DNA of 52,086 nt from a virus. Its lineage: Duplodnaviria; Heunggongvirae; Uroviricota; Caudoviricetes. The stretch lies in IMG/VR virus record IMGVR_UViG_2698536618_000020. One strand, 5' to 3'. The translations under genes were made by a program, and so were the position numbers. This document shows positions 14,061 through 52,086 of this stretch, piece after piece. The notes under the pieces are model-generated. The model was given only the letters and a program-made list of their open reading frames with translations, had not been told where the DNA came from and made no database searches. The stretch's first letter is position 1, and the number at the start of each line of letters is the position of its first letter.

Positions 14061-14078
14061 TGATGGGTATTGTGCTCT

Positions 14079-18327: not shown

Positions 18328-18506
18328 GTACCCAGAATCCTGTGAGCTATACGGAAAGTACACAGAAAGGAAGGTACGACCGCAATTAATAACAAAATCT
18401 TAAAAATCTCATATGGCACTATTAGTTTTCTAAATATTGTATATTTTAAGTATTGCAGGATAACCCTGTAACGAAGTTTGCGTAACAGCATTTTGCTCTA
18501 CGAGTT

Positions 18507-18537
18507 TGCCAGCCTCCCCTGGTGGCTGGCTTTTTTT
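18507..18537 (+). terminator. second intrinsic terminator in late leader
   Basis: GCCAGCC-tcccctggt-GGCTGGC + TTTTTTTGT. Confidence 0.65.
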
Positions 18538-32000: not shown

Positions 32001-32650
32001 TGACGACGATTACAGAAATCATCGGACGTGTGAATACACAACTGGTTGACCCGATGATGGTTCGCTGGCCCCTGCAGGAATTGTGCGATTATTACAATGA
32101 TGCTGTGAGGGCAGTGATTCTGGCGAGACCGGATGCTGGCGCAAGCCTGGAAACAATCAGTTGTGTTCCTGGCGCCCGTCAGGTTTTGCCCGATGGTGTA
32201 ATACAACTTCTTGACGTGATATGCCTCAGTGACGGTAGTGCAGTCAGACCATTATCCCGGGAGGTGCTGGATGCGCAGTATCCTGAGTGGCCCACAATGA
32301 AGGGTATTCCTGAATGTTTTATCAGCAACGACCTGTCCCCGCGCGTATTCTGGCTGTTTCCTGCTCCTGACAAAGAGATAAGTATTGATGCAGTGGTAAG
32401 CCGGATACCGGAGGCAGAGTATGTTCTGACGCAGGACGATGATACGCCAGTTCCACTGGAAGAGGCTTATGTTAACCCACTGGTGGAGTGGATGTTGTTT
32501 CGCGCTTTCAGTAAGGATGCTGCCGGTGGCGCAGAATCGGGGCTGGCTGCGCAGCATTATCAGAGTTTTGTTGAGCAACTTGGGATCAAACAGGGGGCAG
32601 ACAGTGCATTGTCTGCCCGTAAAAAAGTGTTTAACGGAGGTGGAGTGTGA
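32000..32650 (+). CDS. hypothetical virion protein
   Basis: 216-aa ORF, ATGA-coupled. Confidence 0.55.
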   Translation: MTTITEIIGRVNTQLVDPMMVRWPLQELCDYYNDAVRAVILARPDAGASLETISCVPGARQVLPDGVIQLLDVICLSDGSAVRPLSREVLDAQYPEWPTMKGIPECFISNDLSPRVFWLFPAPDKEISIDAVVSRIPEAEYVLTQDDDTPVPLEEAYVNPLVEWMLFRAFSKDAAGGAESGLAAQHYQSFVEQLGIKQGADSALSARKKVFNGGGV

Positions 32651-34899: not shown

Positions 34900-35477
34900 T
34901 CATGTATAGGGGGGGGTATTAGAGAGTGAAGTAATAAACATGTTAATACGATGGAGTGAAGGATGCCGTGTAATTCTGGTTCAAGAGTTTTTTATGCCGG
35001 AAAATCGCAGGATTATTCTGGATAGTAAAGAATCCTGGTTAATAATCTGTGATAGTCAGTTGGGCCATTTAATGCGCAGTATGTATCAGGGACGCCGTTT
35101 TATTCAGCTGAATCTGGAAAAAATTGAAAGGGGTACATGATGTCGCCTTGCCAGTGAAATGGGAATTCACACGAAGACAGTGAATAGCTTTCTGTATACG
35201 GGAATGGCGAAAAATGGACTGTATGGTGTGAGTGTGAAACATCTTGCGTGTGCGGAGTGATGCTTCTCGTTGCTACAGCGGCAATGATAATGCAGTGAAA
35301 AAAGGGGAGCAATATGCTCCCCCAAACCGAAAGAAAATTGCAATAATCAATGAAGTTATTTAGTCATCATCAGAATGTCATGCAAGGCATTTTGTTTCAG
35401 TGATGCCGATCGCGATTTTAGCGAATTCCATCATAAATCCCCTGATTTTTAAGCCTGAAGCAGTCAAAGGAATTTCT

Positions 35478-37103
35478 ATGCCCTATATCGATATCACCAC
35501 GATGCGTGGGATGATGCCGCGCGTTGTGACATCCATGCTGCCCGAGCATTCCGCTGTACTGGCGGAGGACTGCCATTTCCGGTTTGGTGTTATTACACCA
35601 GAACGTCAGATATCCGGGTTAGAGAAAACATTCACAATTAAGCCAAAAACAATTTTTCATTACCGTGACGATTTCTGGTTTGCATGGCCGGATGTGGTGG
35701 ATGTGATCCGCAGTCCGATCGCTCAGGACCCCCACGGGCGTATTTACTACACTGACGGGCGTTTTCCTAAAGTGACGGATGCGACTATTGCCACAAAAGG
35801 GGACGGGAATCACCCGACATCATCGTATCGTCTGGGGATCCCCGCGCCGACGACAGCTCCTGTCTGTACTGTTCAGCAGGGCGGTGATGTTTCTGACGAT
35901 AACCCGAATGATGATGAAACCCGGTTTTATACGGAAACCTTTGTCTCAGATTATGGTGAAGAAGGTCCGCCAGGTCCGGCGTCTCTGGAGGTAACACTCC
36001 GTACTCCGGGAACTGCGGTACAACTGACGCTGGCTCCGGTGCCATTGCAGAATGCCAGTATTAAACGTCGCCGGATTTATCGCTCTGCATCAGGTGGAGG
36101 GGAGGCGGATTTTTTACTTGTGGCTGAACTGGATGCATCCGTGCTCAATTACACGGACAAAATACCGGCGAAAAACCTTGGGCCTTCCCTGGCGACATGG
36201 GATTACCTGCCGCCGCCAGAGAATATGACAGGCCTTTGCCTGATGGCTAACGGTATTGCCGCCGGGTTTGCCGGTAATGAAGTGATGTTTTCGGAAGCGT
36301 ATCTGCCGTATGCATGGCCGGAAGTGAATCGTCACACGACGGCAGAAGATATTGTAGCTATCTGTCCGCTGGGAACGTCACTGGTGGTGGCGACAAAGGG
36401 GGAGCCTTATTTGTTCAGTGGGGTATCACCGTCCACAATTTCTGGTTCCAAAATCCCTTCAATGCAGGCGTGTCTGAGCAGGCGGAGTATGGTTGCGATG
36501 GAGGGCTTTGTGCTGTATGCAGGAACAAATGGCCTGGTGTCTGTTGATGCAAACGGTAATGTCGCGCTGGCGACGGAACAGATTGTTTCACCGGAACAGT
36601 GGCAGAGTCAGTTTAATCCGGCCTCCATTGTGGCTTATTCCTGGCGTGGTGAGTACATTGCCTGTTACACGAAACCGGATGGTAAGCAGGATGTGTTTGT
36701 ATTCAGTCCGGTGAACATGGATATCCGTTATCTCAGTACACCGTTTGACTGCGCATGGGTTGATCTCGCGAAAGATATGATGCGCGTGGTGACAGGAGAC
36801 AAAATGTCAGTGCTTGCCGGGGGCTCTCTGCCCTCCACGATAAGGTGGCATTCAAAAATTTTTTCATTACCTGAAAGAACCTCTTTTTCCTGTATCAGGG
36901 TGAAATCTCCGGCGCCTGAGCGGGTGGGGATCACCATTATGGCTGATGATGTTCCTGTGATTCATTTTGCGCCGGGTACGTTTAAGGGAAGTGTGGTGAG
37001 ACTTCCGGCAGCAACCGGGCAAAACTGGCAGGTGATGGTATCCGGATTCGGGCAGGTGGAACGAATAACCCTGAGTACATCGATGTCGGAGATGCCGGTA
37101 TGA
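35478..37103 (+). CDS. hypothetical tail-associated structural protein
   Basis: 541 aa from ATG with AAAGGAA SD (GTG frame from 35400). Confidence 0.6.
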   Translation: MPYIDITTMRGMMPRVVTSMLPEHSAVLAEDCHFRFGVITPERQISGLEKTFTIKPKTIFHYRDDFWFAWPDVVDVIRSPIAQDPHGRIYYTDGRFPKVTDATIATKGDGNHPTSSYRLGIPAPTTAPVCTVQQGGDVSDDNPNDDETRFYTETFVSDYGEEGPPGPASLEVTLRTPGTAVQLTLAPVPLQNASIKRRRIYRSASGGGEADFLLVAELDASVLNYTDKIPAKNLGPSLATWDYLPPPENMTGLCLMANGIAAGFAGNEVMFSEAYLPYAWPEVNRHTTAEDIVAICPLGTSLVVATKGEPYLFSGVSPSTISGSKIPSMQACLSRRSMVAMEGFVLYAGTNGLVSVDANGNVALATEQIVSPEQWQSQFNPASIVAYSWRGEYIACYTKPDGKQDVFVFSPVNMDIRYLSTPFDCAWVDLAKDMMRVVTGDKMSVLAGGSLPSTIRWHSKIFSLPERTSFSCIRVKSPAPERVGITIMADDVPVIHFAPGTFKGSVVRLPAATGQNWQVMVSGFGQVERITLSTSMSEMPV

Positions 37104-38368
37104 CCAGAAAACCGTGGCGTGCGGGGAAGGATTTATCCACAGTTGTGGAGAACATGGAAATTGGCACCGGGCAGCGTGGTGACGGACGCCACGCATTTGT
37201 GACCCGTGAGGAACTGGTTGGTCTTAAACTCGCCCGGCGTCGAACATCGGGTGGTGCCTCATATGCACTGAATCCGGGTATTGAGATTGACAGTACTTTA
37301 ATGACTGTTGATTTTCCCACAAAACCGCTGAATTTTAAGGCGGCCGGTGGATTTGGCTCGGTTCTTCTTGAATGGGATATGCCTAATTATCGCGGACATT
37401 CACTGACTGAAATCTGGCGGGGTACGGAGGATGACCTTGCTGATGCAGTGCTTGTTGCCACGACGCCGGGGCAGGTTTACGGCGATCCGGTTGACCCTGG
37501 CTGGTCGGGATTTTACTGGATACGTTTTGTTAACGCGGCAGGAGTGAAAGGTCCATGGAATGCTGAAAAAGGCACTCAGGCACAAACACAGATCGGCGTG
37601 AAGGCCATCATTGACCAGATCCGCGATGAGGCTGCAAAGTCGCCGGTTGTGTCCGAGCTGCGTAAAGAAATAAAAAACGCGCAGGGGCAGGCTGTAAAGG
37701 ATGCTGCAATTAAGACAACCGAAGTTGTGGGGACTCTCAGGGAAGAAACGACAAGAACGATTGGTGGTATTGAAACCCGCATTAGCACACTGGATTCGTC
37801 AACCAGTGAATCGCTTAATGAGGTCGACAAGCGCATCACTAAACTGGATAAAGAAGGCGGTGAGGCGTTTCTGGCAATGTGGTCAAAAAAAGCGGGAGTT
37901 GATGGTATCACTGCGGGGATCGGGATTGTCGCCGGAAAAGACAGTGAAGGCAGGCCTGTAAGTCAGGTTGCAATTTCTGCGTCGCAGTTGTTTGTCTTTG
38001 ACCCGAACAACCCGGATAACACCGCCTATCCGTTTGCGGTATCAGGTGGCAAGGTTGTGATCCCGAAAGCGATGATTTATGACGCGGTGATTGAAACACT
38101 GGTGTCGCGGAAGGTTGTGGCGGATGAGGTAAAAGCCGGGGTAAGTATCACTTCGCCAGTTATCCGGAGTGCCGTTATTCAGAACGGAAACTTTCAGGTT
38201 GATTCTCAGGGTAACCTGAATATTGGAGGCCTTTTCAGTGTTACGTCACAAGGGCAACTGACAATTCGTTACTCTAATCAGAATGTAGGACTGGTGATCC
38301 GCAATGATAAAATTGAGGTTTATGATCAGAATGGACGACTGGCTGTTCGCATAGGCAGATTACGCTGA
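37100..38368 (+). CDS. tail fibre / host-specificity-like protein
   Basis: 422 aa; ATGA-coupled; Gly/Val/Ser-rich C-terminal beta-rich region typical of fibre proteins. Confidence 0.6.
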   Translation: MTRKPWRAGKDLSTVVENMEIGTGQRGDGRHAFVTREELVGLKLARRRTSGGASYALNPGIEIDSTLMTVDFPTKPLNFKAAGGFGSVLLEWDMPNYRGHSLTEIWRGTEDDLADAVLVATTPGQVYGDPVDPGWSGFYWIRFVNAAGVKGPWNAEKGTQAQTQIGVKAIIDQIRDEAAKSPVVSELRKEIKNAQGQAVKDAAIKTTEVVGTLREETTRTIGGIETRISTLDSSTSESLNEVDKRITKLDKEGGEAFLAMWSKKAGVDGITAGIGIVAGKDSEGRPVSQVAISASQLFVFDPNNPDNTAYPFAVSGGKVVIPKAMIYDAVIETLVSRKVVADEVKAGVSITSPVIRSAVIQNGNFQVDSQGNLNIGGLFSVTSQGQLTIRYSNQNVGLVIRNDKIEVYDQNGRLAVRIGRLR

Positions 38369-38382: not shown

Positions 38383-38661
38383 TTGGAATACGGTTTTGCC
38401 ATTTATAACAGAAATAACGTTAATGTTACGGGCGTGCTTACTCCCATATTTTTCCTGGACAGGTTTACGGCGGAGTCGGGATCAAAAACGTATACGAATA
38501 AACCAGAAGGGAAAACATTGCAGGCAGTCTGTTCATTATTTCCGTGGAATAATGTATTTAAGGACCGGAAAGTACCGAAGATAACCATTAATGGCAATAC
38601 GGTGACGTGGTCAAATCTTGAGCAGGGGATGGGGTCATATATTTATACATTCTGGGGGTGA
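38383..38661 (+). CDS. hypothetical protein, AT-rich
   Basis: 92-aa ORF directly after fibre gene. Confidence 0.45.
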   Translation: MEYGFAIYNRNNVNVTGVLTPIFFLDRFTAESGSKTYTNKPEGKTLQAVCSLFPWNNVFKDRKVPKITINGNTVTWSNLEQGMGSYIYTFWG

Positions 38662-39284
38662 GTTGTATGTATGGTTTAAGCATTACGAAACCAGATGGCA
38701 GCTTGTGGATAAGCCCGGGGTTTACGCCTCAGTGTCTGATCAATAAGGGAACTATTCCGGCGACTGAGAAGGCTTTTTTTAAAACGTCAATTCCGTCAGG
38801 AAAAAGTTGTTTTTTCTTTATCAGAACAGAGAATAAGGCCGATGTCATGTACACGCATGAACAGATTGATGGATATCATGCCTTAAGGCTTCATCAAATT
38901 GTCAGGGGAACGAATCCTGGTGTTACGACTGTTTATGCTTTTGCGAATATGGTTACTCAACCTTCTGAGTATGGTATCGCCATGTATAACCCGTCGGGTG
39001 AGATGATTTACCATGGCGAAATGATGCTGCTTGACGCGAAGTTAATACCAGTTGATATCAAGTTTGAGAAGGACCTTGGATATCCATGCGCAATTATGCC
39101 TGCACTGGTTGGATATTATAACTGGAAACGAACACCTTATGACCGACCGATTTACACCACATCCACTGGTGCTACAGGAAATAAAATATATTCCTGTGAG
39201 CATTATTCCGGTGGTGCAACATGGGATATCCGAAAGCCGTATATAGATAAAGTTCTGGTTATTAATTCCTCAATATATGATTAG
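38658..39284 (+). CDS. hypothetical protein, AT-rich (possible tail tip / receptor-binding accessory)
   Basis: 208-aa ORF, ATGA-coupled to previous. Confidence 0.5.
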   Translation: MSCMYGLSITKPDGSLWISPGFTPQCLINKGTIPATEKAFFKTSIPSGKSCFFFIRTENKADVMYTHEQIDGYHALRLHQIVRGTNPGVTTVYAFANMVTQPSEYGIAMYNPSGEMIYHGEMMLLDAKLIPVDIKFEKDLGYPCAIMPALVGYYNWKRTPYDRPIYTTSTGATGNKIYSCEHYSGGATWDIRKPYIDKVLVINSSIYD

Positions 39285-39363
39285 CGTAAGAAAAACTTTA
39301 ATAGTGTAAAACGAAAGCGTTCCTTTCAGACATCGCATCCTTTAATTCAGAGAAATACTTAAA

Positions 39364-40101
39364 ATGAAAAGTATCATGAAATTTTTTGCGTGTGCAGTTC
39401 TGGTGATGAGTTGCTTAACTGCACAGGTAAATGCAGCATCAGGCGATAGTACGGTATCTCTCGGGTTTGCACACATACGCTTCCCCGGGCTGAAGGATTT
39501 TGTTAGAGACGCGGGTGTTTATAACCGGGATACGTTCAGGAATGTTGTAAACGTAAACCATTTTAATTCATCAGGTGAATACGAAAATGCTATTGCCCGG
39601 GGGCATGACGGCACAGCCAAAAGCCCCCTGGGGATGAGCATCAGGTATCGTTACGAGATAACTGATGAACTGGGTGTTATAGCCTCTTTTACATGGGCGC
39701 GCTCCATGACTAATGCGCAGGCATTTATTGATGTTAAGCCTTCCGATCCATCACGAGAGGTAAAAAAACCGGCAGCTTCAGCGAGAACTGATATCAGGGC
39801 TAATTACTGGAGTCTACTATCCGGTCCTTCGTGGCGGTTTAACGAATACCTCAGTGTGTATGCAATGGCTGGTATGGGGGTTGCAAAAGTCACCACTGAC
39901 TTGAAAATTAACGACAATCTTAATCATGGTGCCGGTAGTTTTTCTGAAAGTAACAGCACCAAAAAAACGTCTATTGCATGGTCTGTCGGCGCGCAATTTA
40001 ACTTCAATGAAAGTGTTACTATGGACGTCACTTATGAAAGCTCAGGCTCTGGCGACTGGAAAACTGATGGTTTATTTGCAGGCATTGGCCTGAAATTCTG
40101 A
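39364..40101 (+). CDS. lom: Lom/Ail/PagC-family outer membrane beta-barrel protein
   Basis: 245 aa; signal peptide (MKSIMKFFACAVLVMSCLTAQVNA); C-terminus 'YESSGSGDWKTDGLFAGIGLKF' matches lambda Lom '...GSGSGDWRTDGFIVGVGYKF'. Confidence 0.85.
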   Translation: MKSIMKFFACAVLVMSCLTAQVNAASGDSTVSLGFAHIRFPGLKDFVRDAGVYNRDTFRNVVNVNHFNSSGEYENAIARGHDGTAKSPLGMSIRYRYEITDELGVIASFTWARSMTNAQAFIDVKPSDPSREVKKPAASARTDIRANYWSLLSGPSWRFNEYLSVYAMAGMGVAKVTTDLKINDNLNHGAGSFSESNSTKKTSIAWSVGAQFNFNESVTMDVTYESSGSGDWKTDGLFAGIGLKF

Positions 40102-41023: not shown

Positions 41024-41680
41024 ATGGGCGGAAAAAAAGGCGGTGGTGATACCAAAGTAAAACCAACAGCAGCGCAAATAGCACAGGAAGAAGTGGCCTG
41101 GAAAGGGTGGCAGGATTATCAAAAAATCCTCCGCCCGGCTGAAGATAACTTCATGGAAAAGGTCGATGACCTGAACAGTGAGCAGCAGTACGACAATATT
41201 GCTGGCACCACAAATCTGGGGTATCAGAAACAGTTTGGCGAAGCACGGAAGGAGCTGGCGGGTAATCTTGCTCAGTCCGGTGTTGACCCGTCCAGTGGTC
41301 GCTTTAACGCGGTAATGAATGCGAACCAGAGTGATCAGGTAACCGGGCAGATTGACACAACCACACGGGGGCAGGTATCGCAGGCAGATAAGTATGTTGC
41401 CGGGCTACAGGATGTTGCTGCTCTCGGTTCTGGTCAAAAGGCGGATGCGTTACAGAGTTTTAACTCGCTGGCAGACAGCAGTCTGGTAAAAGCTAAATCG
41501 GACGCACAGGCTGCGTTTACGAAACAGCAGGGGCGAGCCTCTCTTGTTGGCGCTGGTTTGGGTGCGGTAGGTGCATATGCGATGTATAAGGCTGGCGGTA
41601 GCGGAGGAAGTGGCGGTGCTAAAACACCTGGCACCGGCGCTAATGCCATTCAGCATCAGGCTCAGAACTGGAGACTGTGA
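41024..41680 (+). CDS. hypothetical virion-internal protein
   Basis: 218 aa; Gly-rich C-terminus. Confidence 0.55.
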   Translation: MGGKKGGGDTKVKPTAAQIAQEEVAWKGWQDYQKILRPAEDNFMEKVDDLNSEQQYDNIAGTTNLGYQKQFGEARKELAGNLAQSGVDPSSGRFNAVMNANQSDQVTGQIDTTTRGQVSQADKYVAGLQDVAALGSGQKADALQSFNSLADSSLVKAKSDAQAAFTKQQGRASLVGAGLGAVGAYAMYKAGGSGGSGGAKTPGTGANAIQHQAQNWRL

Positions 41681-42129
41681 TTATGGAGTACGGTAAATAC
41701 GAAACACTTGCGAGATACGGTTATACCGGAGCTGCCCGTCCACAGGGTGACTGGCAGACGTCAGCAGCGCTGACACGCCAACAATACGACGACTGGCGAA
41801 CCAGATATTTGCCCCGCGTGGCAAGGCTGGCTGACCTTGGCGAGAACAACAGCCTGATGAGTGCCCAGCTTGCCCGGGTGGGCGGCCTTGCCACTTCCAG
41901 TCTCCGTACAGCGCAGATGGCGCAGGATAACCAGATGGCGAGATACGGGGTAAGCCGCCCGGATAATCCCAACAGTAACACACTGGGTTTGCGTAATGCT
42001 CTGGCAATTGCTGGCGCGAAAAATGGTATCCGTGAAGCAGAGCAGGATCGCCAGATGAACATACTGACGGGGGCTTCTGCACCTGCAAGACAACAACTGA
42101 GTGTTGGCGGAAAACTGGTGTCAGCGTAA
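41677..42129 (+). CDS. hypothetical virion-internal protein
   Basis: 150-aa ORF, ATGA-coupled. Confidence 0.55.
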   Translation: MIMEYGKYETLARYGYTGAARPQGDWQTSAALTRQQYDDWRTRYLPRVARLADLGENNSLMSAQLARVGGLATSSLRTAQMAQDNQMARYGVSRPDNPNSNTLGLRNALAIAGAKNGIREAEQDRQMNILTGASAPARQQLSVGGKLVSA

Positions 42130-42138
42130 GGGGGCAAT

Positions 42139-42390
42139 ATGGGATACGGTTTACTGGATATTGCGAATCAGTCGAGGCGTGAGGTATTACAGGGAATAAG
42201 TGATGCCGACAGACGACGTGAAGAAATTGAGGCCGCGAACAAACAGATGGCGGCGCAACAGAAAGCGCAGAACAAACAGAATATCGGCACGGGAATTGGT
42301 ACGGGTGCAGCTATGGGCGCTGCTGTTGGTGGTCTCCCCGGTGCGGCTATTGGTGCTGTCATAGGTGGTATTGCTGGTTCTTTGTTTTAA
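42139..42390 (+). CDS. small glycine-zipper membrane protein
   Basis: 83 aa; C-terminal 'GIGTGAAMGAAVGGLPGAAIGAVIGGIAGSLF'. Confidence 0.5.
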   Translation: MGYGLLDIANQSRREVLQGISDADRRREEIEAANKQMAAQQKAQNKQNIGTGIGTGAAMGAAVGGLPGAAIGAVIGGIAGSLF

Positions 42391-42400
42391 GGAGTGGTGA

Positions 42401-43666
42401 ATGAGCGGATTTGCACAGGGTTTACTTGCCGGATTCAGCACGGTTGACCAGGCAATGACCCGTCGTAAGGAACTTGGTTTGCGAGAAGCACAGCTTGCTC
42501 AACAACAGAAAAATAACGAGCGCGATTTTGAATTTGCACAGTCGCAGTTTGAACATAATAAAGACGTTGATCAGCGGAACTTTGATTACAGAGCCAAAGT
42601 CGACGACCGTAATTATGCACTGCAGGAAAGGGAGTTTAACGCCAACCAGAATTACCGGAATGCGTCGCTGGGTATGGAGCAGCAGCGACTCCGGATGCAG
42701 AAATACAACCAGCGACGGCTTGAGTATAACGATATGCTGGCGCGCGATCAGCCTGTGATGGCGGCGCTTGGAAAGGCTGTGGATGCTGGCGATCGGGATG
42801 CAGCAATGCGTCTTTACGGCCAGTTGTCAGAGGGTAATCCGCTGAGGCTGATGGCGAATGATGGCTATGTAGCGAAAGCGGGTCAGGCCGTGAACAACCT
42901 GCAAAAAATCTTTGATGACAAGCCAGACAGGGCTATCGCTTCACTTAATACGCCGGAGAATCTTGATGTCCTTTCCGGGGTGTTTGGCCCGGAACTGCAA
43001 CAGCGTATTGGCATGCCCGATTCAACCGGGAAAAAGACGATAAAAGAGGCCAGGATTGGCAGTATAGTACCGGCACAGCAGGAAGGGTACATACTTATCG
43101 GCCTTGATCTCACATACAGTGATGGCTCTACAGCACATAAACCCGTTACGGAATACGGCAGTGCACATCCTGATGATCAAACCGTGCTGGCGGTGCCTGT
43201 TGATAAGGCTGTTGAGCTTGTCAGGGATCGCAGTAAATTCGCGGAAATTTCGAAAAATTTCGGCTATTTCACGCCGAAGCAGCAGGGACTTTCTGCGGAT
43301 CAACTTCAGAAAGGAGCCAGCCAGGTAGCGATAAAGGTTGCACAGGACGGCGGTGATGCGCAGGGAGCAGTGACGCAATATTATGCTTCGATGGGACTGC
43401 CGCAGTATCAGCAGCAAATTCAGCAGCAAAAAATTCAACAAGGGATTACCAGTTGGGCGGGTGATGATCCGGATAAGCAGGCATTTGCCAGAGAAGTGGC
43501 CTCCCGTCAGCCAGAAATGCTGGAGCCTCAGAATCAGAAATTGCTGGAACACGGGTATGCGAATTTTCTCCGTATTCAAAAGGCCAGGGGGGAACAGGCC
43601 AGGGATGATAGCGCGGCCTCTGCATCTGAGTTTATCCGTGGTCTGAAACAGAATTACGCGCAGTAA
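42401..43666 (+). CDS. hypothetical virion-internal protein
   Basis: 421 aa, coiled-coil rich, AAGGAG SD. Confidence 0.6.
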   Translation: MSGFAQGLLAGFSTVDQAMTRRKELGLREAQLAQQQKNNERDFEFAQSQFEHNKDVDQRNFDYRAKVDDRNYALQEREFNANQNYRNASLGMEQQRLRMQKYNQRRLEYNDMLARDQPVMAALGKAVDAGDRDAAMRLYGQLSEGNPLRLMANDGYVAKAGQAVNNLQKIFDDKPDRAIASLNTPENLDVLSGVFGPELQQRIGMPDSTGKKTIKEARIGSIVPAQQEGYILIGLDLTYSDGSTAHKPVTEYGSAHPDDQTVLAVPVDKAVELVRDRSKFAEISKNFGYFTPKQQGLSADQLQKGASQVAIKVAQDGGDAQGAVTQYYASMGLPQYQQQIQQQKIQQGITSWAGDDPDKQAFAREVASRQPEMLEPQNQKLLEHGYANFLRIQKARGEQARDDSAASASEFIRGLKQNYAQ

Positions 43667-43699
43667 TTCACCATTCCCGTTAATACTATTTCCTGATAC

Positions 43700-43726
43700 C
43701 CGGTCATTGTGCCGGGTTTTTTTATG
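43700..43726 (+). terminator. intrinsic terminator
   Basis: CCCGG-tcattgtg-CCGGG + TTTTTTTAT. Confidence 0.7.
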
Positions 43727-43734
43727 GAGTCTGT

Positions 43735-46700
43735 ATGGCTTATTCCGATGAACAGCGCCCTGAAGCGCAATTTGGCAACCAGAGCCGCAACAGCCTGAAC
43801 ATTCAGCAGCCGGGAGAGACTGACAGCTATGATGTGTTTTTCTCCGATCCCAATCGCTGGAAGGACAACAGCACGTCGTTCAGCCTGGGCGATGTATTGC
43901 CAACTATGGGGAAAGGTGTCGCCCAGTCCGTCCGGGGGACAGGGGAAATGGCCCGTGGACTCGGTGATGCGATGATTCAGAGCCCGGTAAAAACAGGGGC
44001 ACGTATTTTAAATGAGTTCAGCCGTATGGGGCTGCCGGGAGTAGCAACTGTTCAGGATATTTTTGTCGGTGGCAGCAAGGGGGCGGATGAGGTCATCGAC
44101 ACTCTGCCTGATGGAAAAAATGCGGTTACTGATACTGTCGGTAAAGGTCTGAAGGTCACAGGCAAGGCAGTCAGTGGCGGCGCTAAAGCCTCGGATGAAT
44201 GGCTGACTGGCAAGATGTCGCCGGGGGCGCAGCGGGCGCTGAATACACCGATGACTGAAGGATATGATGATTCAGCGGTCTGGGTAGCGAAAGGGGTTAA
44301 CCTGATTGGTGCGCTTGTACCGGATATGGTTGCAGGCGGTGTGACTAAAAAGCTGGGTGATGTCACTCTGCGAAAAGTGCTGACCGCCGGGCTGGAGAAA
44401 AAATACATCGCGGCAGGGATGCAGCCGGAAAGAGCCACAGCACTGGCAGCCGAAGCTGTCGATAAAAAAATGCCGGATTTTTTCCAGGCAGGCCTGATCA
44501 CCCATTCCACTGTCAGTGCGCAAGGGCGGAGTGCAATGGCAGCGGCAGATGCTGTTCTTAACGCGGATTATTCTGAGCTGGCGAAGTCACCGAAATTTCA
44601 GCAGACCTTTTTGTCAATTGATGCAGATCCGCAGCACGCGCAGCTTACTGACCGCCAGAAAATGGACCTGGCAAAAGAGCGTGTTGCCGATGAGGTGCGT
44701 GCGCAACTGGCAACCGATCCTGAATTGCTGGCTGTGAATGCCATGGCGGCAAAACTGGGCGATGCTCAGTTGCTTAATCTGGCGATGCGGGGCACGGCGA
44801 AGACCGTTAAAAGCGGCATTGTCAGAAATGCCACGGAACAGGGGACGATTAATGCGGCGCAGGGTGGCTATTCACGCTATCAGGAAAACACGGCATTGCG
44901 TGAGACCGCCGGAATGGATGTGTCACCGTGGGAGGGCGTGGCTGACGCAACGATCGAAGGTGCAGCCCTTGGTGCTGCAATGGGGGCACCATTCGGTGCG
45001 GCTGCCGGATATCGTGGAAAACGTCAGGCGGCAGATGAAGCAGCCATGCGTGAGGCTGAAAGCGTTCCTCAGGACGAATCGGCTCCGCAACCCGAACCGG
45101 TTGATCCGGTGGCACAGCATCGTGAATCTATGCAGGGGATGAATCGCGAGCAGCTTCTGGAACAGTATGCTGATGCGGATATGGCACATGAGGGAGACAC
45201 GTCTGCCGTTCATCGCCGGGAAGCCGCCAGCCAGCTGTTGAATGAACTGGATGAACAGGCGAAGCGACAGGCGGTGATGGATGAGCTGAAGGCGAAGCCG
45301 CGCCCTGAACTGCTTGAGGAATACCGAAAACTCAGCCAGAAGGAAGGGCGTACTGATACTGAAGAGCAGCAGTTACAGGCAATACGTGATGTGCTTCGCC
45401 CTCAGCGGGAGGCCAGACCGGAGGCACAGCCACAGCCGGAAAATGCGGATGATGGCGACGGGAGTATTTACCCGACGGTGCGGTTCCGCGATCCGGATGA
45501 AGTTCGTATTGAAATTAACGAGAGTGGTGCGTCCAGACCAGCAGAACGCATTGAAAAGGTGCGTCCGGACAACCGTTATTTCACGGATGAAAAAAGTGCT
45601 CTGGGGAGCGACGTTTTCCGCAATGCCAGCGCCACCGGCCTGAAACCGTCCGTAGTGAAGAAAGGCGAGAATCAGTATGCCGTTGAAATGGATAATCCTG
45701 CGTTCTCTGAAGATGTGGCAACGGAGACCATTAACACTCTGGCTGACGGAGAGCGTATTACTGATGCTGATCCGATGGAACAGCCCGCGTTCATGCGTGA
45801 CCCGCGATTCCGTGGTTTTACGGGGGATGATACAGAAGTGCAGGCCCGTCTTGCCCGTGGCAACGCGCCGACGGCGGAAGAACTGGTGCGTTCCCAGATG
45901 GCTGAAGGTGATGCCGGTCCGACAGCACAGGAGTTAACTGAGCGTCCACGCCTTCCCGCTCCCGGCGATATTCATCCCGGACAGGGATATCCGTTACCAG
46001 GAGAAGTGGCGCGTACGCCGGATGAAAATCAGGCCGGACGTGGTGGTCGTTTTACCACAACCGGTGAGGTGAAGGGCCAGAGTTTCCAGAAAGGACGTGC
46101 GCAGGCACCGGAAAATGCCGCTGGTCGCCAGGGGGAAATACTGGAGGGCGAAACAGTTCGTCGTGGTCTGCCGTCACCGGATGAGCAGAACGCCACAGCA
46201 CCAGTGCGTGAAGGACTTCCTGCACCTGAAAGTCAGCGTGGGGTTGATATGCCACAGCCTGAATCACTCCCTCGTATGGTTCGTGACTCCCTTCCGGAAC
46301 TGGCACAGCAGGCAGAAGCACGCAGACAGACCGGGGATAATCGCCAGACCATAACCGATGTTCCGGATACTGAGGTGCCGGTGCCGGTAGATAAACCGAG
46401 CACTCACCAGCAGGTGCGTGGTGCGAAAATTGAAGACTTTGGCGAGGAGATTAAGGGCGCGGCAAAACACCGTTATGCGCAGCTTGCTGAAGCTATGGGT
46501 AAAACGCTGGAGGATGGGGAGTACGCGACACAACCACTGAGCAAACTGTTTCCAAAGCCGGATTATGCCCGTCTGGAAAAAGAAGGTGTGGATAGTGACA
46601 CGCTGGCAATGATGGCGTTGTATCGCAGTGAAATTCCCACCAGAACAAGCCGTAACATGCAGAAATGGATCAGCATTGTTAAAAGCGGTCGCGAAGCTAC

Positions 46701-49700
46701 TGCCGGTATGCTGGAGGGGAAAATTCCGGCAGCGAAACTGGCTGATATGATGGACAGTAAGCCGGGGTTACGGAGCATGTCGGATACCTGGAAACTGCTC
46801 CGTACGCTTTCTGCATTGCAGATTGATAAAGCATCCGGCTATCGTGTCAGGTCCGGTGTTTATTCGTTTGTCGGGGGAAAACGTTACGATCCGCCGCAAA
46901 TGATGTATTCGCTTCGTGATAGCAAGGGGCGCGACCTCTTTTTCTCGGAAAGCCGGGATGAGTTACTGAAAAAGGCGAAAGCATATTTCGATGAACAAGG
47001 CTCCAGAGAAAGGGAAACGCCAGCAACCTCTGCTGATGACAGAATAACCTTTGACGTGTACCGGCATAAGGCCAGTGGCGACATTTTTATCGGTTATGGC
47101 AAAAACAGGCAGAAACTGAAGGGCGGTTTTGAGTCTGCCCGTGATGCACATGATTATGTGCGCACACATCGTGATGAGCTGGTTAATCAGGTGAAGGCGC
47201 TGCGTGAAGTCTCGCGTGAGGAGCAGCGTAACGCCACCAACCGCGATCGTACCGGACCAGAACGCCGCAAGGGGGATGTTTCGCCGGAGCAGTTCAGTGA
47301 TGCGTTTGGTTTTCGTGGTGTGCAGTTTGGTAATTATGTGGAAAGTCCGCGTCGTCAGGCTGATTTGAACCGGGCTTATGACTCGCTGCATGACCTGGCT
47401 GACGTGCTGAACGTGCCGACAAAAGCGCTTTCTCTGAACGGTCGTCTTGGGCTTGCTTTTGGTGCCCGTGGTAAGGGTAAGGCGGCGGCACACTATGAGC
47501 CGGGTGAGGTGGCAATCAACCTGACAAAAGGTAACGGACCGGGGGCGCTGGCCCACGAATGGTTCCATTCACTGGATAATTATTTTGGTCGTTATGATGT
47601 TTCCACTGACGGGAAGATCACGTCAGGTGGCGACTATATGACGGAAGCACAGCGTGCCGGGCGCGTATTTAAAGACGGCAGGTATGTTGATGCGGAATAT
47701 CCGGTACGTCAGGAGGTTTACGACGCGTTTAAAGGCGTGATGAAAGCCATTAACAGCAGTGACATGTTGCGTCGTTCTGAACGCCTGGATGGCGTTCGTT
47801 CAAAACCGTACTGGTCAACGGATGTTGAAATGGCGGCGCGAGCCTTTGAGCGTTATGTTCAGGATAAAGCGCGTATGGCTGGCGTGGAGAATGATTATCT
47901 GGTCAATATCCGTAAGGCACCTGAGCACAACACAGATAACACCTGGGCTTATCCGACGAATGCGGAACTGGATGGCGGTATTCGTGATGCATTCGATCAC
48001 CTGTTCAGTACGCTGAAAACCCGTGAGACGGACAAGGGCGTTGCGTTTTATTCCCGTAAGGGCGTGACCCGCACACCTGAAGGCAATCTCATTTCGGATG
48101 TTAACCGCAGTGCGGAAGCCAAAGGCAGCCCGGTCCCGCAGGTTGAAGCGGTTGCCCGTGGCGTGATGAGTGGCATTAAGGACAGTGACCTGAAGGTCCG
48201 CGTGGTGAAGTCACAGAAAGAGGCTGAAGCGCTGGCGGGTGAATCGTTCGACGGTTACGGCAGGGTGCATGCGTTCTATCGTCCGGATAAACGTGAAATT
48301 GTCCTGGTGGCGGATAACATCCCTGACGGGCGGACCGTTCGCGAGAAGCTGCGTCACGAGATTATCCACCATGCAATGGAGCATGTAGTCACGCCAGCGG
48401 AATATCAGACGATTATTAAGACCGTGCTGAAAACCCGTGACAGTGATAACGCCACCATCCGTGAAGCCTGGCGTAAGGTTGATGCGTCTTATGGTAAGGA
48501 ATCACCGGAAGTGCAGGCGGGTGAATTTCTGGCACATATGGCGGAGAAACAGCCGAATAAATTTGTGGCGGCGTGGGAGCGTGTTGTTGCCCTGGTCAAA
48601 GGGGTACTGCGTCGCACGGGGTTACTGAAGCCGACAGAGCTGAACGATATCAGACTTGTTCGCGAAACTATTCGCACGTTAGGCCAGCGTGTGCGGGAAG
48701 GTTACACGCCGCGTGAGGATGGCGCTGGCGCATCGTCTCAGTACTCCCGTAGCGGTAAGCCTGATCCGTTCAAAGTGCCGGAAGGTGAGGGCGAGCGTTA
48801 TCGTGATGACCTTGCCAGAATGATGAAGTCTCTGCGCTCAACGGATTTAACGGTAAACATCGGGCGTACGCCGCCGGTATTGCGTCACCTTGGCGCACCA
48901 GATTTGCCGCTGGTTATCTCCCGCGACACTGTGCGTAAGGCCACCAATGGTGTGAAACATGTGGTGCCGATGGATGTTATCGAGAGACTACCGGAACTGA
49001 TGCACGATCCGGATGCAATTTACCGCTCAGCGACAGAAAGAAATGCGGTTGTGATGCTGCTTGATGCCGTGGATAAAAATGGTGATCCGGTGGTGTCAGC
49101 GGTACACATGAAGGCTGTCCGGTCGCGTCTGGAAATCAACAAGGTAGCTTCTGTTTACGGTACAGAAAATGGAAAAAAACTGAAGAGTATGGAAATGACC
49201 GGGTTAACGTTGTACCGGAGAGAAAAATTAAGCCGCGATAACCTTCTGCACAGAGGGCTCCAATTGCCCAAAGGGGAACATTCTTATCGCGGCTCTGCGG
49301 ATAAAATACTCTATCCTGAAGATATTCGCAAGGGGCCGCATTACTCCCGTACCAGCAGTCTGACACCGGAAGAGACAATTGCATCGCGTTTTGTGCGCCA
49401 GATGCAGGATAAATTCCAGGTGCTGAAAGCTGTTCAGGAGAATATCCGTAAAACTGGCGGAAAAATAGACGACAGTAACAACGCTTATATGGCGGAAGAA
49501 CTCTTCCACGGGAAGGCGGAAAACGACCTGAACGTGATGAAGGAGCGCTACGTTCAGCCACTGGCTAAATTACTGGCGGACTACAAAATTGCGCAGGCCG
49601 ATCTGGATGAGTACCTCTACGCCCGTCACGCGCCGGAACGTAACGCGCATATCGCGAAAATCAACCCGAAAATGCCGGACGGCGGTTCGGGGATGACCAA

Positions 49701-52086
49701 CGCGGAAGCGGCGGAAATCATGCAGCGTGTGCGTAACAGTGGCAAACAGGCACAGTATGACCGTCTGGCAGGGATTGTTGACGATATGCTGGCTCGTCGC
49801 CGTGAGCTTATCCGTGAGGCCGGACTGGAAGAGAGCGGTGTGGTGGATGCCTGGCAGAACGCCTACCGTTACTACGTTCCTCTGAAAGGCCAGGATGTTG
49901 ACGGTGTGGTGTCACTGCCCCGTACAGGTAAAGGCTTCACTATCGGCGGACGTGAAAGCAGGCAGGCCATGGGGCGTGCATCCCGCGCACAGTCTCCGTC
50001 CACTCAGGCGATACAGGACTTGAGCGAATCGCTGATCCGCAATCGCAAAAATGAAGTAGGTAACGCCTTCCTGAAACTGGTACAGGATAATCCAGACAAG
50101 GATTACTGGCAGGTATTCACCAATGAGCGACCGGACACCATGCGTGCGATTGCAGAGCGTGTTGATCCGGAAACCGGTGAAACCCGTCACGAAGTTGTCG
50201 AACGTCCTGTACCGATGGCAATGATGGCAGACCGGTACTTCACCACCAAAAAGAACGGCAAAACGTACTACATCAAACTCCATGATCCGCGCCTGATGCG
50301 TGCGATGAAGAATATGGGACCGGAAACCAGTAACGCCGTAATCCGCACGCTGGGGAAAGTTAACCGCTTCCTGGCAACGGTGAACACGTCGTATAACCCG
50401 GAATTCCTGGTCAGTAACTTCATCCGTGACGTGCAGACGGCGGTGATGAACCTGAAGGCGGAGCAGGGAAGGAGCGACGGTAAACTGAAAGGGCTCGATA
50501 ACTTATCCGCCCTGGCTGTGGTGAAAGACAGCCGGTCTGCCATGTCTGCCGTATACGCCCGTCTGCGTGGTAAAACCCTCACGGGCAACGGTGCGCAGTG
50601 GCAGAAGGTGTGGAAAGAGTTTGTTGAGGACGGAGGTAAAACCGGCTGGTTTAACATGGGTGACCTTGAAGGCCAGCAGAAGGAAATGGATCGCCTTGTA
50701 TCGCTGGCGAAGGGAGGATGGAAAGGCCAGAGTATCGGTGCATGGAATTCGTTCCTTAACCTTGTCGAGGATGCCAACGGGGCGGTTGAAAACGCTCTGC
50801 GTCTTTCTGCCTATAAACACGCCCGTGATGCTGGTTTGTCACGCCAGCAGGCGGCGTCTCTTGCCAAAAACATGACGGTGAACTTTAACCGTCGTGGTGA
50901 GCAGGGAGCGCTGATGAACTCGCTGTATATGTTTGCCAACGCCAGCATTCAGGGGACCGCAAACCTGGTGAGAACGCTCGGACATCTTAATGGCGACGGG
51001 CCGTTACCGGAGCGCCTTCGCTGGAAGAATCTCAATGTACCGCAGAAAATCGCGCTTGCAGCTGTGGGAGCGGGTTATCTGCTTGGCTCGCTTAACCGCA
51101 GTGTTGCGGGGGAGGATGATGACGGGGTTAACTGGTATGACAAGGTGCCGTCTCATGTGAAAGAGCGTAACCTCGTCATTATGAAATCGGTGTTCGGGGG
51201 CAAGGCCGGAGAGTACTGGAGTATTCCTCTGCCTTACGGGTACAACGTTTTCTTCCTGCTCGGGCATACTGCTGAAGGTGTGGCAGCGGGCGACCTGACT
51301 GCTTCACGTGCTGCCGGTAATGTTGTCGGTGGTATCCTGGGGGCATTCAGTCCTGTGGGCAGTGAAACGTCGGAAACACTGTCCGGGGCATTGCTGAAAA
51401 ATGCAGCGCCGACCATTCTGCGTCCGTTTGCGAACCTTGCCATGAATGAAAACTTCATGGGGGCGCAGATTTACCAGGAGAACATGCCATTTGGCACACC
51501 GAAACCGGACAGCCAGCTGGGCAGACGTTCAACGCCTGAGGCGTACAAGGCGTTTGCATCCTGGCTGAATGCGTTCTCAGGTGGCAGCCAGTATCGTCCC
51601 GGCGCGGTGGATATTACACCGGAATCGCTGAAATTCTGGATTGACTATATCTCCGGAGGGACAGGGCGCTTCATTTCCAAAACCACAGATGCGGCGGTGA
51701 AATCGCTGAACGGTATTGATATACCGGAACAGCAGGTGCCCTTCCTGGGGAAAATTTCGGGTGAGGTGATGCCGTATGCTGACCAGCAGAAGATGTATGA
51801 CCGGATGACGGAGGTTGCGCAGTACCACGCAGAGCTGAAGAGTCTGACCGGTGCAGAAAGAACGGCATTCATTGACGAGAACAACGGAAAATTGTCGATG
51901 AACGGGCTTATGCAGGATACCCGGAAGAGACTGAAGGATTTGCGTAAACAGCGTGATGCCATTTATGCCGACAGTTCTCTCAGTCTGGCGCAGCAGGCGG
52001 CGATAGTGAAATCGGTAGAGCGGGATATGAAGGTTGCCGTGGATCGCTTTAACCGCGAGTACAACAAAAAAGTGGGAGTGGAGTAA
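43735..52086 (+). CDS. giant 2783-aa protein, candidate polyvalent virion/ejected protein with two HExxH motifs
   Basis: 8352-nt uninterrupted ORF (cannot be chance); HEWFH at 47554-47568 and HEIIH(H) at 48355-48369; follows internal-virion-protein-like genes; stop TAA at window end. Confidence 0.85.
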   Translation: MAYSDEQRPEAQFGNQSRNSLNIQQPGETDSYDVFFSDPNRWKDNSTSFSLGDVLPTMGKGVAQSVRGTGEMARGLGDAMIQSPVKTGARILNEFSRMGLPGVATVQDIFVGGSKGADEVIDTLPDGKNAVTDTVGKGLKVTGKAVSGGAKASDEWLTGKMSPGAQRALNTPMTEGYDDSAVWVAKGVNLIGALVPDMVAGGVTKKLGDVTLRKVLTAGLEKKYIAAGMQPERATALAAEAVDKKMPDFFQAGLITHSTVSAQGRSAMAAADAVLNADYSELAKSPKFQQTFLSIDADPQHAQLTDRQKMDLAKERVADEVRAQLATDPELLAVNAMAAKLGDAQLLNLAMRGTAKTVKSGIVRNATEQGTINAAQGGYSRYQENTALRETAGMDVSPWEGVADATIEGAALGAAMGAPFGAAAGYRGKRQAADEAAMREAESVPQDESAPQPEPVDPVAQHRESMQGMNREQLLEQYADADMAHEGDTSAVHRREAASQLLNELDEQAKRQAVMDELKAKPRPELLEEYRKLSQKEGRTDTEEQQLQAIRDVLRPQREARPEAQPQPENADDGDGSIYPTVRFRDPDEVRIEINESGASRPAERIEKVRPDNRYFTDEKSALGSDVFRNASATGLKPSVVKKGENQYAVEMDNPAFSEDVATETINTLADGERITDADPMEQPAFMRDPRFRGFTGDDTEVQARLARGNAPTAEELVRSQMAEGDAGPTAQELTERPRLPAPGDIHPGQGYPLPGEVARTPDENQAGRGGRFTTTGEVKGQSFQKGRAQAPENAAGRQGEILEGETVRRGLPSPDEQNATAPVREGLPAPESQRGVDMPQPESLPRMVRDSLPELAQQAEARRQTGDNRQTITDVPDTEVPVPVDKPSTHQQVRGAKIEDFGEEIKGAAKHRYAQLAEAMGKTLEDGEYATQPLSKLFPKPDYARLEKEGVDSDTLAMMALYRSEIPTRTSRNMQKWISIVKSGREATAGMLEGKIPAAKLADMMDSKPGLRSMSDTWKLLRTLSALQIDKASGYRVRSGVYSFVGGKRYDPPQMMYSLRDSKGRDLFFSESRDELLKKAKAYFDEQGSRERETPATSADDRITFDVYRHKASGDIFIGYGKNRQKLKGGFESARDAHDYVRTHRDELVNQVKALREVSREEQRNATNRDRTGPERRKGDVSPEQFSDAFGFRGVQFGNYVESPRRQADLNRAYDSLHDLADVLNVPTKALSLNGRLGLAFGARGKGKAAAHYEPGEVAINLTKGNGPGALAHEWFHSLDNYFGRYDVSTDGKITSGGDYMTEAQRAGRVFKDGRYVDAEYPVRQEVYDAFKGVMKAINSSDMLRRSERLDGVRSKPYWSTDVEMAARAFERYVQDKARMAGVENDYLVNIRKAPEHNTDNTWAYPTNAELDGGIRDAFDHLFSTLKTRETDKGVAFYSRKGVTRTPEGNLISDVNRSAEAKGSPVPQVEAVARGVMSGIKDSDLKVRVVKSQKEAEALAGESFDGYGRVHAFYRPDKREIVLVADNIPDGRTVREKLRHEIIHHAMEHVVTPAEYQTIIKTVLKTRDSDNATIREAWRKVDASYGKESPEVQAGEFLAHMAEKQPNKFVAAWERVVALVKGVLRRTGLLKPTELNDIRLVRETIRTLGQRVREGYTPREDGAGASSQYSRSGKPDPFKVPEGEGERYRDDLARMMKSLRSTDLTVNIGRTPPVLRHLGAPDLPLVISRDTVRKATNGVKHVVPMDVIERLPELMHDPDAIYRSATERNAVVMLLDAVDKNGDPVVSAVHMKAVRSRLEINKVASVYGTENGKKLKSMEMTGLTLYRREKLSRDNLLHRGLQLPKGEHSYRGSADKILYPEDIRKGPHYSRTSSLTPEETIASRFVRQMQDKFQVLKAVQENIRKTGGKIDDSNNAYMAEELFHGKAENDLNVMKERYVQPLAKLLADYKIAQADLDEYLYARHAPERNAHIAKINPKMPDGGSGMTNAEAAEIMQRVRNSGKQAQYDRLAGIVDDMLARRRELIREAGLEESGVVDAWQNAYRYYVPLKGQDVDGVVSLPRTGKGFTIGGRESRQAMGRASRAQSPSTQAIQDLSESLIRNRKNEVGNAFLKLVQDNPDKDYWQVFTNERPDTMRAIAERVDPETGETRHEVVERPVPMAMMADRYFTTKKNGKTYYIKLHDPRLMRAMKNMGPETSNAVIRTLGKVNRFLATVNTSYNPEFLVSNFIRDVQTAVMNLKAEQGRSDGKLKGLDNLSALAVVKDSRSAMSAVYARLRGKTLTGNGAQWQKVWKEFVEDGGKTGWFNMGDLEGQQKEMDRLVSLAKGGWKGQSIGAWNSFLNLVEDANGAVENALRLSAYKHARDAGLSRQQAASLAKNMTVNFNRRGEQGALMNSLYMFANASIQGTANLVRTLGHLNGDGPLPERLRWKNLNVPQKIALAAVGAGYLLGSLNRSVAGEDDDGVNWYDKVPSHVKERNLVIMKSVFGGKAGEYWSIPLPYGYNVFFLLGHTAEGVAAGDLTASRAAGNVVGGILGAFSPVGSETSETLSGALLKNAAPTILRPFANLAMNENFMGAQIYQENMPFGTPKPDSQLGRRSTPEAYKAFASWLNAFSGGSQYRPGAVDITPESLKFWIDYISGGTGRFISKTTDAAVKSLNGIDIPEQQVPFLGKISGEVMPYADQQKMYDRMTEVAQYHAELKSLTGAERTAFIDENNGKLSMNGLMQDTRKRLKDLRKQRDAIYADSSLSLAQQAAIVKSVERDMKVAVDRFNREYNKKVGVE

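Follow-up and report, generated by a model that had tools for sequence, protein, structure and literature searches.

The giant cysteine-free protein of a 933W-type phage: a probable ejection protein with modules related to the N4 virion RNA polymerase

Introduction

What does the 8.35-kb open reading frame (ORF) at the end of a 933W-type phage genome encode, and which parts of so large a protein belong to a delivery machine and which are carried by it? The question is raised by IMG/VR virus record IMGVR_UViG_2698536618_000020, a stretch of 52,086 nucleotides (nt) from a member of the Caudoviricetes, which is called the window below. Its giant ORF (43735-52086, plus strand) specifies 2783 amino acids (aa) with zero cysteines and is the orthologue of L0134 of phage 933W, listed as 'hypothetical protein', and of gp47 of phi24B; the Prokaryotic Genome Annotation Pipeline (PGAP) uses the name 'LPD38 domain-containing protein'. 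In the commonest Shiga toxin (Stx)-converting phages the gene takes up about 14% of the genome, yet it has been annotated as 'hypothetical' since 1999 and its presence in the virion was found in 2026.

Polyvalent proteins, together with the LPD, metallopeptidase (MPTase) and PBECR domains, were defined by Iyer, Burroughs, Anand, de Souza and Aravind (Iyer et al. 2017), whose searches with the N-terminal region of phage N4 recovered only related phages. The 2026 phi24B preprint reports that gp47 (2811 aa) is abundant by mass spectrometry (MS) in purified virions and absent from the cryo-electron microscopy map, and proposes it as a capsid-packaged ejection protein. JC1 gp69, a Bcep22-like giant that shares the C-terminal module described below, is virion-associated by MS, and in coliphage PTXU04 a giant bearing LPD38 was critical for efficient infection in a CRISPRi-ART knockdown. 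A first-pass annotation of the window had proposed a multi-domain (polyvalent) injected protein as a candidate. That interpretation is supported by four Pfam domains, by the position of the gene in the structural module, by the virion MS of the orthologue and of JC1 gp69, and by two conserved zincins, and for the orthologues it is essentially in print; the gene and the concept were already known. The countering of defences, which the annotation mentioned for such proteins, is only a possible role here. What is new here is the parsing of the protein into chassis and cargo and its relationship to the virion RNA polymerase (vRNAP) of N4, the latter previously unreported, and our literature search found no paper linking the giant protein family with the N4 vRNAP. 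Here, we report that two of the modules are homologous, as judged by profile comparison, to parts of the N4 vRNAP, and we consider it likely that the giant ORF encodes a capsid-packaged, tail-threaded ejection protein which carries enzymes into the cell on a chassis of the N4 gp50 type.

Results and Discussion

Modules of the giant protein

Pfam searches with the whole protein and with overlapping segments resolved LPD5 (1047-1190), LPD1 (1351-1430), MuF_C (1740-1829) and LPD38 (2466-2671), with E-values of 1e-17 to 1e-48. All four are far above their gathering cut-offs and stand beside two zincin domains in a gene encoded among virion and late genes, as is characteristic of large polyvalent proteins. 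The parts are, in order:

43822-45108, plus strand: N-terminal module (N-module), aa ~30-458, best-conserved core aa 258-430, homologous by profile to the N-terminal domain (NTD) of N4-type vRNAPs
44275-44331, plus strand: weakly hydrophobic helix, aa 181-199, inside the N-module
44959-45012, plus strand: glycine zipper, aa 409-426, inside the N-module
45109-46428, plus strand: low-complexity acidic linker rich in Pro, Gln and Ala, aa 459-898 (~440 residues), assigned by composition and without a Pfam match
46429-47304, plus strand: start of cargo cassette 1, a conserved 'IxDFGE' extension (aa 899-1046) followed by LPD5 (aa 1047-1190)
47320-48039, plus strand: predicted zincin 1, aa 1196-1435, with HEWFH 1274-1278 at nt 47554-47568, assigned by conserved residues and the CLCA_X match
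48142-48714, plus strand: predicted zincin 2, aa 1470-1660, with HEIIHH 1541-1546 at nt 48355-48372 and conserved E1597 and E1604
48832-49224, plus strand: MuF-C / PBECR domain (Pfam aa 1740-1829), a predicted BECR-fold RNase with conserved H1742 and S1806
49231-52083, plus strand: C-terminal module (C-module), aa 1833-2783, about 105 kDa, mostly helical, with terminal long helices
51130-51747, plus strand: LPD38, aa 2466-2671, within the C-module

Hydrophobic residues drop to 14-23% in windows covering aa 401-900, and the C-module contains a weakly hydrophobic segment at aa 2435-2457. Searches of PDB sequences by phmmer and profile hmmsearch returned low-complexity noise only.

Relationship to the N4 virion RNA polymerase

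The comparison with N4 was made because the capsid gene of the phage is of the N4 type and the N4 structural module also ends in a giant gene. BLASTP of the giant protein against the N4 vRNAP gave nothing significant, and the link emerged only with family profiles. A profile built from the N-modules of 63 giants matches residues 87-446 of the N4 vRNAP colinearly (25.9 bits, E = 2.9e-10 as a single comparison). In a shuffle control the real sequence reached 27.5 bits, whereas the highest scores were 6.3 among 1,000 global shuffles and 16.1 among 1,000 local ones. When a ten-member alignment of diverse vRNAPs was used as the target of hhalign, the N-module matched the vRNAP N-terminal region at 98.4% (E = 9.9e-15) and zincin 2 matched the HExxH region, which is subdomain C1 of the C-terminal domain (CTD), at 88.6% (E = 2.6e-6, 142-150 columns, motifs aligned), while nine non-corresponding pairs gave at most 0.4%. 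Reciprocally, when the vRNAP N-terminal profile was run against 210 ORF fragments from all six frames of the window, the giant ORF came first (E = 5e-4). By these profile matches the N-module is homologous to the NTD of the N4 vRNAP, and zincin 2 to its HExxH subdomain C1. The polymerase itself has no counterpart: none of the four vRNAP Pfam domains of N4 gp50, a T7-like single-subunit RNA polymerase, was found in the giant protein, and the N-module, zincin 2 and C-tail profiles gave at most 0.3% in hhalign against the N4 polymerase region.

The N4 NTD binds lipid, has predicted membrane helices at 224-278, inserts into nanodiscs and is implicated in genome and protein injection. A low-complexity linker of ~100 residues tethers it to the remainder of the vRNAP, and the CTD, which is required for encapsidation, consists of the HExxH subdomain C1 and a helical C2 of ~110 kDa without structural relatives. 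In the model proposed for N4, the ejection proteins gp52 and gp51 go first, and the vRNAP chain follows through the ~35 Å tail channel like beads on a string. The giant protein has corresponding features in the same order, namely the helix at 181-199, at an equivalent offset upstream of the core, the glycine zipper at 409-426, the ~440-residue tether, the chassis zincin and the ~105 kDa helical C-module. It is like N4 gp50 also in being a giant, cysteine-free and capsid-packaged protein whose gene comes last in the structural module, in a phage that has an N4-gp56-type capsid protein, in carrying the related HExxH-type zincin about 900-1,250 residues from the C-terminus, and in ending in a large helical domain without structural relatives. 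It is unlike gp50 in that its cargo consists of LPD5 with a zincin and of a PBECR RNase, in the zincin spacing (HExxH in N4, HExxxH in the giant family), and in the lack of recognisable gp51 and gp52 homologues among the upstream ORFs.

Fixed ends and a variable middle

An exhaustive HMMER search with residues 1-460 recovered 99 relatives; giants of 2,000-4,665 aa are matched at their N-terminus. A word-indexed homologue search with the N-terminus had returned Escherichia and Salmonella fragments only, from a database that holds the giant almost only as fragments of at most about 1,670 aa. Hidden Markov models (HMMs) of the modules were mapped on 63 proteins of at least 1,500 aa. The N-module was present in all 63 and zincin 2 in 59, mostly 850-1,160 residues before the C-terminus, while LPD5 with zincin 1 occurred in 19/63, always as one unit directly N-terminal to zincin 2, and MuF-C in 16/63. 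Tails detected and tails missed by the C-module HMM are homologous to each other (100%, E = 4.6e-42). Other cargo in the related giants includes LPD39, a DdrB-type ParB, SNF2/ResIII helicases and methyltransferases. Because presence across these giants is near-universal for zincin 2 and occasional for LPD5 with zincin 1 and for the RNase, the N-module, zincin 2 and C-module are read as the chassis, and LPD5 plus zincin 1 and the MuF-C RNase as cargo. On this distribution the second His-Glu domain appears as a conserved chassis element and not as an accessory effector.

Counterparts of the C-module (~950 aa) are 42% identical in Vibrio phages and 27% identical in phages of the Ralstonia GP4-like and Burkholderia Bcep22-like groups, and weaker matches extend to Bacillus and Pelagibacter podophages. 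In metagenomic proteins it follows quite different upstream domains and in several it apparently stands alone. Its AlphaFold2 (AF2) model is largely helical (predicted local distance difference test, pLDDT, 80; predicted template modelling score, pTM, 0.77) and had no significant Foldseek match in the PDB (best E = 0.1). Apparently complete proteins of ~1,600 aa comprising only MuF-C and the C-module were seen in Salmonella (P0131-P0148, 72-76% identity) and E. coli (P0121, 100%); these could represent truncated or split forms of the giant gene, or else assemblies that contain a frameshift.

The start of cargo cassette 1 (46429-47304) is where alleles of Stx phages diverge most. Relative to the 933W allele, substitutions peak at aa 801-1200 (46135-47334), with 24-40 per 100 aa against 0-17 elsewhere, in a stretch that runs from the last part of the linker through the 'IxDFGE' extension and LPD5. 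As the divergence is concentrated there, it suggests allelic exchange of, or diversifying selection on, the cargo cassette.

The two zincins and the MuF-C domain

The two metallopeptidase-type motifs, which the first-pass annotation had noticed, stand at residues 1274-1278 (HEWFH) and 1541-1546 (HEIIHH); 0.04 chance HExxH matches are expected from the composition of the protein (40 His, 198 Glu). Both motifs are kept in distant homologues, and a lack of such conservation was what that annotation had named as counting against its proposal.

Zincin 1 is matched in one stretch by NCBIfam CLCA_X (NF041907) over residues 1172-1427 (E = 3.8e-45), and the score of 154.3 bits against a family cut-off of 260 indicates homology at the level of the domain and not membership of the family. 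As LPD1 (1351-1430) falls within this single match, it is probably the C-terminal helical part of the zincin 1 peptidase domain. In 68 distinct homologues, down to 46% identity, H1253, H1274, E1275, W1276, H1278, D1281, E1365, R1369 and E1372 are at least 93% conserved. The phage-type MPTase signature of Iyer et al. is found, with a His at the end of strand 2 and an Asp three residues past HExxH, and the model places the HExxH helix after a small beta-sheet, with a Glu on a later helix, in a zincin fold as in gluzincins. Zincin 1 is best described as a predicted zincin of the MtfA/lethal-factor-like kind, and together with LPD5 it makes up an optional cassette. From MtfA, anthrax lethal factor, Pro-Pro endopeptidase and CLCA_X (154 bits, below the cut-off of 260) it differs in being embedded in a giant protein and fused to LPD5.

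Zincin 2 had no match among curated families, Pfam M76 giving only E = 0.23. Its homologues at 19-23% identity retain the motif (HEAVGH, HEILGH, HELIGH) and a downstream A-x-E...A-E helix. The spacing of the family is HExxxH, with the His at +5 in 52/55 domains, 29 of which read HExxxHH; the giant protein has His at both +4 and +5 and fits the HExxH as well as the HExxxH spacing. E1597 is conserved in 55/55 domains, and E1604 is conserved too. Gluzincin features are found here as well, the motif lying in helix 497-516 of the model after strands 478-490. An assignment of H1546 alone (not H1545) as the ligand was softened, since a second alignment and the tabulation of motifs show only +5 family-wide. 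Judged by their residues, both zincin domains would bind zinc and hydrolyse peptide bonds, and both resemble peptidases of proteins and peptides such as MtfA, Pro-Pro endopeptidase, lethal factor, SprT/Wss1 and the minigluzincins.

The MuF_C match scores 64-69 bits, where the cut-off is 27.6. Conservation is at least 93% at both H1742 and S1806, and the serine sits at the end of the model's fourth strand, which is the His and strand-4 Ser arrangement of PBECR domains. The domain is accordingly a predicted BECR-fold RNase and not a metallopeptidase as stated in the phi24B preprint; the latter assignment was rejected.

Reading frame, start site and cysteine content

The single 8.35-kb frame of 2783 aa recognised in the first-pass annotation was borne out. 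It runs from an ATG at 43735 to a stop codon at 52084-52086, the final three bases of the window; GGAG lies at 43726-43729, 5 nt 5' of the ATG, and PGAP chose the same ATG for the prophage gene of E. coli O104:H4, which is 97.8% identical. The region in front of it holds one feature:

43698-43729, plus strand: terminator-like hairpin (stem 43698-43717), a T-run, then GGAG (43726-43729) as the giant ORF's ribosome-binding site

The hairpin and T-run separate this ribosome-binding site from a 421-aa ORF that lies upstream. Terminator-like hairpins number 1 per 700 nt against a shuffle mean of 0.8, which is not above chance, and the hairpin is a putative terminator. The 933W annotation starts 13 codons further upstream (MPGHCAGFFYGVC...; L001 (933W) 11026) and runs through the hairpin. 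As these extra codons cross the hairpin and hold that protein's only two cysteines, the annotated 933W start is probably over-extended.

The absence of cysteine is far from accidental in statistical terms: 32.8 residues are expected from the other proteins of the phage (1.18% Cys; Poisson P about 6e-15). Cysteine-free sequences are also the rule among related giants (57/63) and vRNAPs (9/10, of 3,240-3,785 aa). A plausible reason would be that the chain passes the tail unfolded and is exposed to the oxidising periplasm. Other cysteine-free virion proteins of the phage are those of a 335-aa ORF beside the capsid gene (28249-29256), a 645-aa tail fibre (32647-34584) and a 422-aa needle (37100-38368); the terminase, portal, nozzle and non-structural proteins have 2-11 cysteines each.

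A delivery protein and its possible mechanism

Since the features corresponding to N4 occur in the same order, the giant protein is most readily understood as an ejection protein that delivers enzymes. By transfer from N4, a few copies would be packed in the head via the C-terminal part. Upon release of the tail needle the cysteine-free chain would be threaded domain by domain through the short tail, and the N-module would insert into, or complete, a trans-envelope conduit. The tethered enzyme domains could then refold on the cytoplasmic side, where the zincins may process the polyprotein, host proteins or both, and RNA may be the substrate of the RNase domain. Ejection, membrane insertion, protease and RNase activity and the targets are all assigned here by analogy.

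Several points weigh against this reading. For the giant protein and its orthologues alike, ejection, membrane insertion and enzymatic activity are what we infer. The AF2 models of the giant-protein segments are of medium confidence (pLDDT 77-80), and neither of the two models had a Foldseek match in the PDB at E <= 0.001; weak matches to lethal factor, HigB2 and ParE2, none of which reached that threshold, were set aside as evidence. The zincin 2 match to N4 is good and not overwhelming, and the N-module is compositionally biased (bias 42.7 bits) though the controls were passed. The C-module gave 0.2% in a first test against the C-terminal 1,400 aa of N4, the C-tail 0.8% against the vRNAP C-terminus (CTD-C2), and larger profiles and a transitive route via divergent tails at most 2.3%. 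A claim of homology to CTD-C2 was dropped on these values (0.2-2.3%), the two being alike in size, helicity and absence of structural relatives. Three of the 55 zincin 2 domains (P0303, P0305, P0309) are without the His-Glu motif while the domain is retained, which hints that zincin 2 may also have a partly structural, non-catalytic role. Because the N4 vRNAP is reported to be packaged unprocessed, autoprocessing by the chassis zincin is doubtful. Finally, the ORFs upstream of the giant gene (see below) show no similarity to N4-family gp51 and gp52 profiles (at most 0.3%).

A broader proposal, to which we give somewhat better than even chances, is that the giants of the Stx/933W, Vibrio, Bcep22 and GP4 types and the vRNAPs of the Schitoviridae are divergent versions of one ancient delivery chassis with swappable cargo. 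Its parts would be a membrane-inserting N-module, a disordered tether, interchangeable cargo, a zincin and a helical packaging domain of ~1,000 residues, all cysteine-free for threading. If so, the second His-Glu motif belongs to the delivery machine and not to an anti-defence effector, and the RNA polymerase of N4 is one cargo among proteases, RNases, nucleases, helicases and methylases. The homology of NTD and C1 lets the ejection model of N4 be transferred to medically relevant Stx phages and conversely suggests that the N4 polymerase rides on a general delivery platform. Sorting the protein into chassis and cargo also turns the vague label 'polyvalent protein' into testable predictions on infectivity, host dependence and membrane binding. 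Should the chassis tolerate exchange of cargo, it would be of potential interest for engineering phage-delivered proteins.

Alternative explanations and known systems

The giant protein could instead be a dispensable DarB-like carrier of anti-defence effectors, injected only to neutralise restriction or other immunity and without a role in the delivery machinery. Relatives in the PHROG database are labelled 'DarB-like antirestriction', the concept of polyvalent proteins agrees with such a role, related giants carry methylase, helicase and ParB nuclease cargo, and the peak of allelic divergence at aa 801-1200, which covers the LPD5 cassette, points to diversifying exchange. The giant protein is, however, without a methyltransferase or helicase domain in Pfam and NCBIfam, and about 1,600 residues (N-module, zincin 2 and C-module) are conserved in nearly all relatives regardless of cargo. 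Given the homology of the N-module to the NTD of N4, a domain with an implied part in injecting genome and protein, and with the LPD38 giant of PTXU04 critical for efficient infection, we regard a purely anti-defence role as unlikely. P1 DarB, the namesake of the PHROG label, is similar in being a large head-packaged protein delivered with the DNA, but its defining methyltransferase and helicase domains are absent here, P1 is a myovirus and its pathway of incorporation into the head is different. Only the LPD38 region matches the 'DarB-like' PHROG. Orthology to DarB was rejected, as neither the N6-adenine methyltransferase nor the helicase domains were found in the whole protein or its overlapping segments.

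Cell-wall hydrolases are part of podophage ejection proteins such as T7 gp16, and this, together with the presence of two zincin domains, favours a peptidoglycan-digesting conduit protein whose metallopeptidase degrades the wall so that an extended tail channel reaches the inner membrane. That role was proposed for gp47 by the authors of the phi24B preprint. The 'metallopeptidase' of the preprint is nevertheless the MuF-C domain, a predicted BECR-fold RNase, and the zincins resemble peptidases of proteins and peptides; Pfam searches with the whole protein and its segments gave no LAS, M23, M15 or lysozyme match, and the homologous zincin of N4 stays attached to a cytoplasmic RNA polymerase. 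Wall digestion by the giant protein therefore seems quite improbable to us, and delivery of enzymes into the cytoplasm remains the preferred reading.

That the protein is purely structural (tape-measure-like, scaffold-like or a head-internal core), with His-Glu motifs as non-catalytic relics, would suit the unprocessed packaging of the N4 vRNAP with its related zincin and the three motif-less zincin 2 domains, but it is contradicted by the conservation of catalytic-type residues, as metal-ligand and general-base residues are kept in 52/55 zincin 2 domains and in at least 93% of 68 zincin 1 homologues at identities down to 19-46% and the PBECR His/Ser pair is conserved, and by cargo that varies like a set of effectors, which makes it highly improbable. 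A tape-measure protein in the strict sense was rejected: the phage is of a podovirus type with a ~22 nm tail and, being short-tailed, needs no tape measure, no tape-measure family was matched and the catalytic motifs are conserved.

Among known systems the closest are phi24B gp47, 933W L0134 and the Sp5-type 'LPD38 (or LPD5) domain-containing proteins', which are full-length colinear orthologues (90-98% nt) with the same position at the end of the structural module, the same Pfam domains and both His-Glu motifs. Unlike these orthologues of Stx phages, the present copy resides in a stx-negative relative, and it differs from 933W mainly at aa 801-1200. The 'DarB-like antirestriction' giants Bcep22 gp75, JC1 gp69 and those of Ralstonia GP4-like phages have in common a C-module of roughly 900 aa (27% identity over 83-85%), a position at the end of the morphogenesis module and detection in virions by MS. 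Their phages also have homologues of the portal, capsid and head-closure proteins of 933W. These giants differ in length (about 4,500 aa) and in the DarB-like annotation, and the comparison with them covers the C-module. LPD1, LPD5, LPD38, MuF-C/PBECR, zincin MPTases (with the His of strand 2 and Asp at +3, and with HExxxH variants) and a virion-gene context are all shared with the polyvalent proteins of Iyer et al. (2017). That work places MPTases at the hubs of a domain network; in the present analysis a fixed chassis emerges, made up of the N-module, one zincin and the C-module, and its N-module is linked to N4.

Phage type and gene neighbourhood

The full-length giant gene was found by megablast in 186 phage records at 90-96% identity, all of them short-tailed Stx-converting phages and their relatives, and in 427 of 5,426 complete E. 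coli genomes; identity over phage and genome orthologues together is 90-98% nt. The window is a lambdoid genome of the 933W type with a cI-like repressor, Q, a NanS-type esterase, lysozyme, terminase, portal, an N4-gp56-family capsid protein and tail genes, and the giant gene is the final one of the terminase-portal-capsid-tail module. Neither a stx operon nor tRNAs were found in searches of the window. Between the Q antiterminator gene (17724-18257) and the gene for the NanS-like esterase / DUF1737 capsid-decoration protein (19023-20933) there are ~765 nt without tRNA genes; this gap (within 17724-20933) is the slot that holds tRNAs and stxAB in Stx phages. The phage is a stx-negative member of the 933W/phi24B type.

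The giant gene is directly preceded by a block of small ORFs:

41024-43666, plus strand: four cysteine-free ORFs rich in Gln, Ala and Gly (218, 150, 83 and 421 aa), just 5' of the giant gene

The 83-aa and 218-aa products have C-terminal glycine-zipper hydrophobic tails, and the 133-aa ORF preceding the four encodes three cysteines. By position the four resemble the gp52 and gp51 genes of N4 and may be candidates for co-ejected proteins. A 'three-gene ejectosome operon' is a conjecture drawn from cysteine-free, glycine-zipper composition only, with no similarity to gp51 or gp52. The first-pass annotation had described the upstream genes as internal-virion-protein-like, and this holds only loosely: one PHROG match so labelled (35400-37103) exists, but it lies 6.6 kb upstream and corresponds by gene order to the phi24B nozzle, and the five genes directly 5' of the giant gene match PHROGs of unknown function.

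Three moron-type genes, encoding a small outer-membrane protein, a membrane-associated protein and Lom, are located at 38383-40101 between the tail-needle gene and the small-ORF block. A Fic/DOC-family ORF of 164 aa (14070-14564; Pfam E = 3e-11) is found in the early/nin region.

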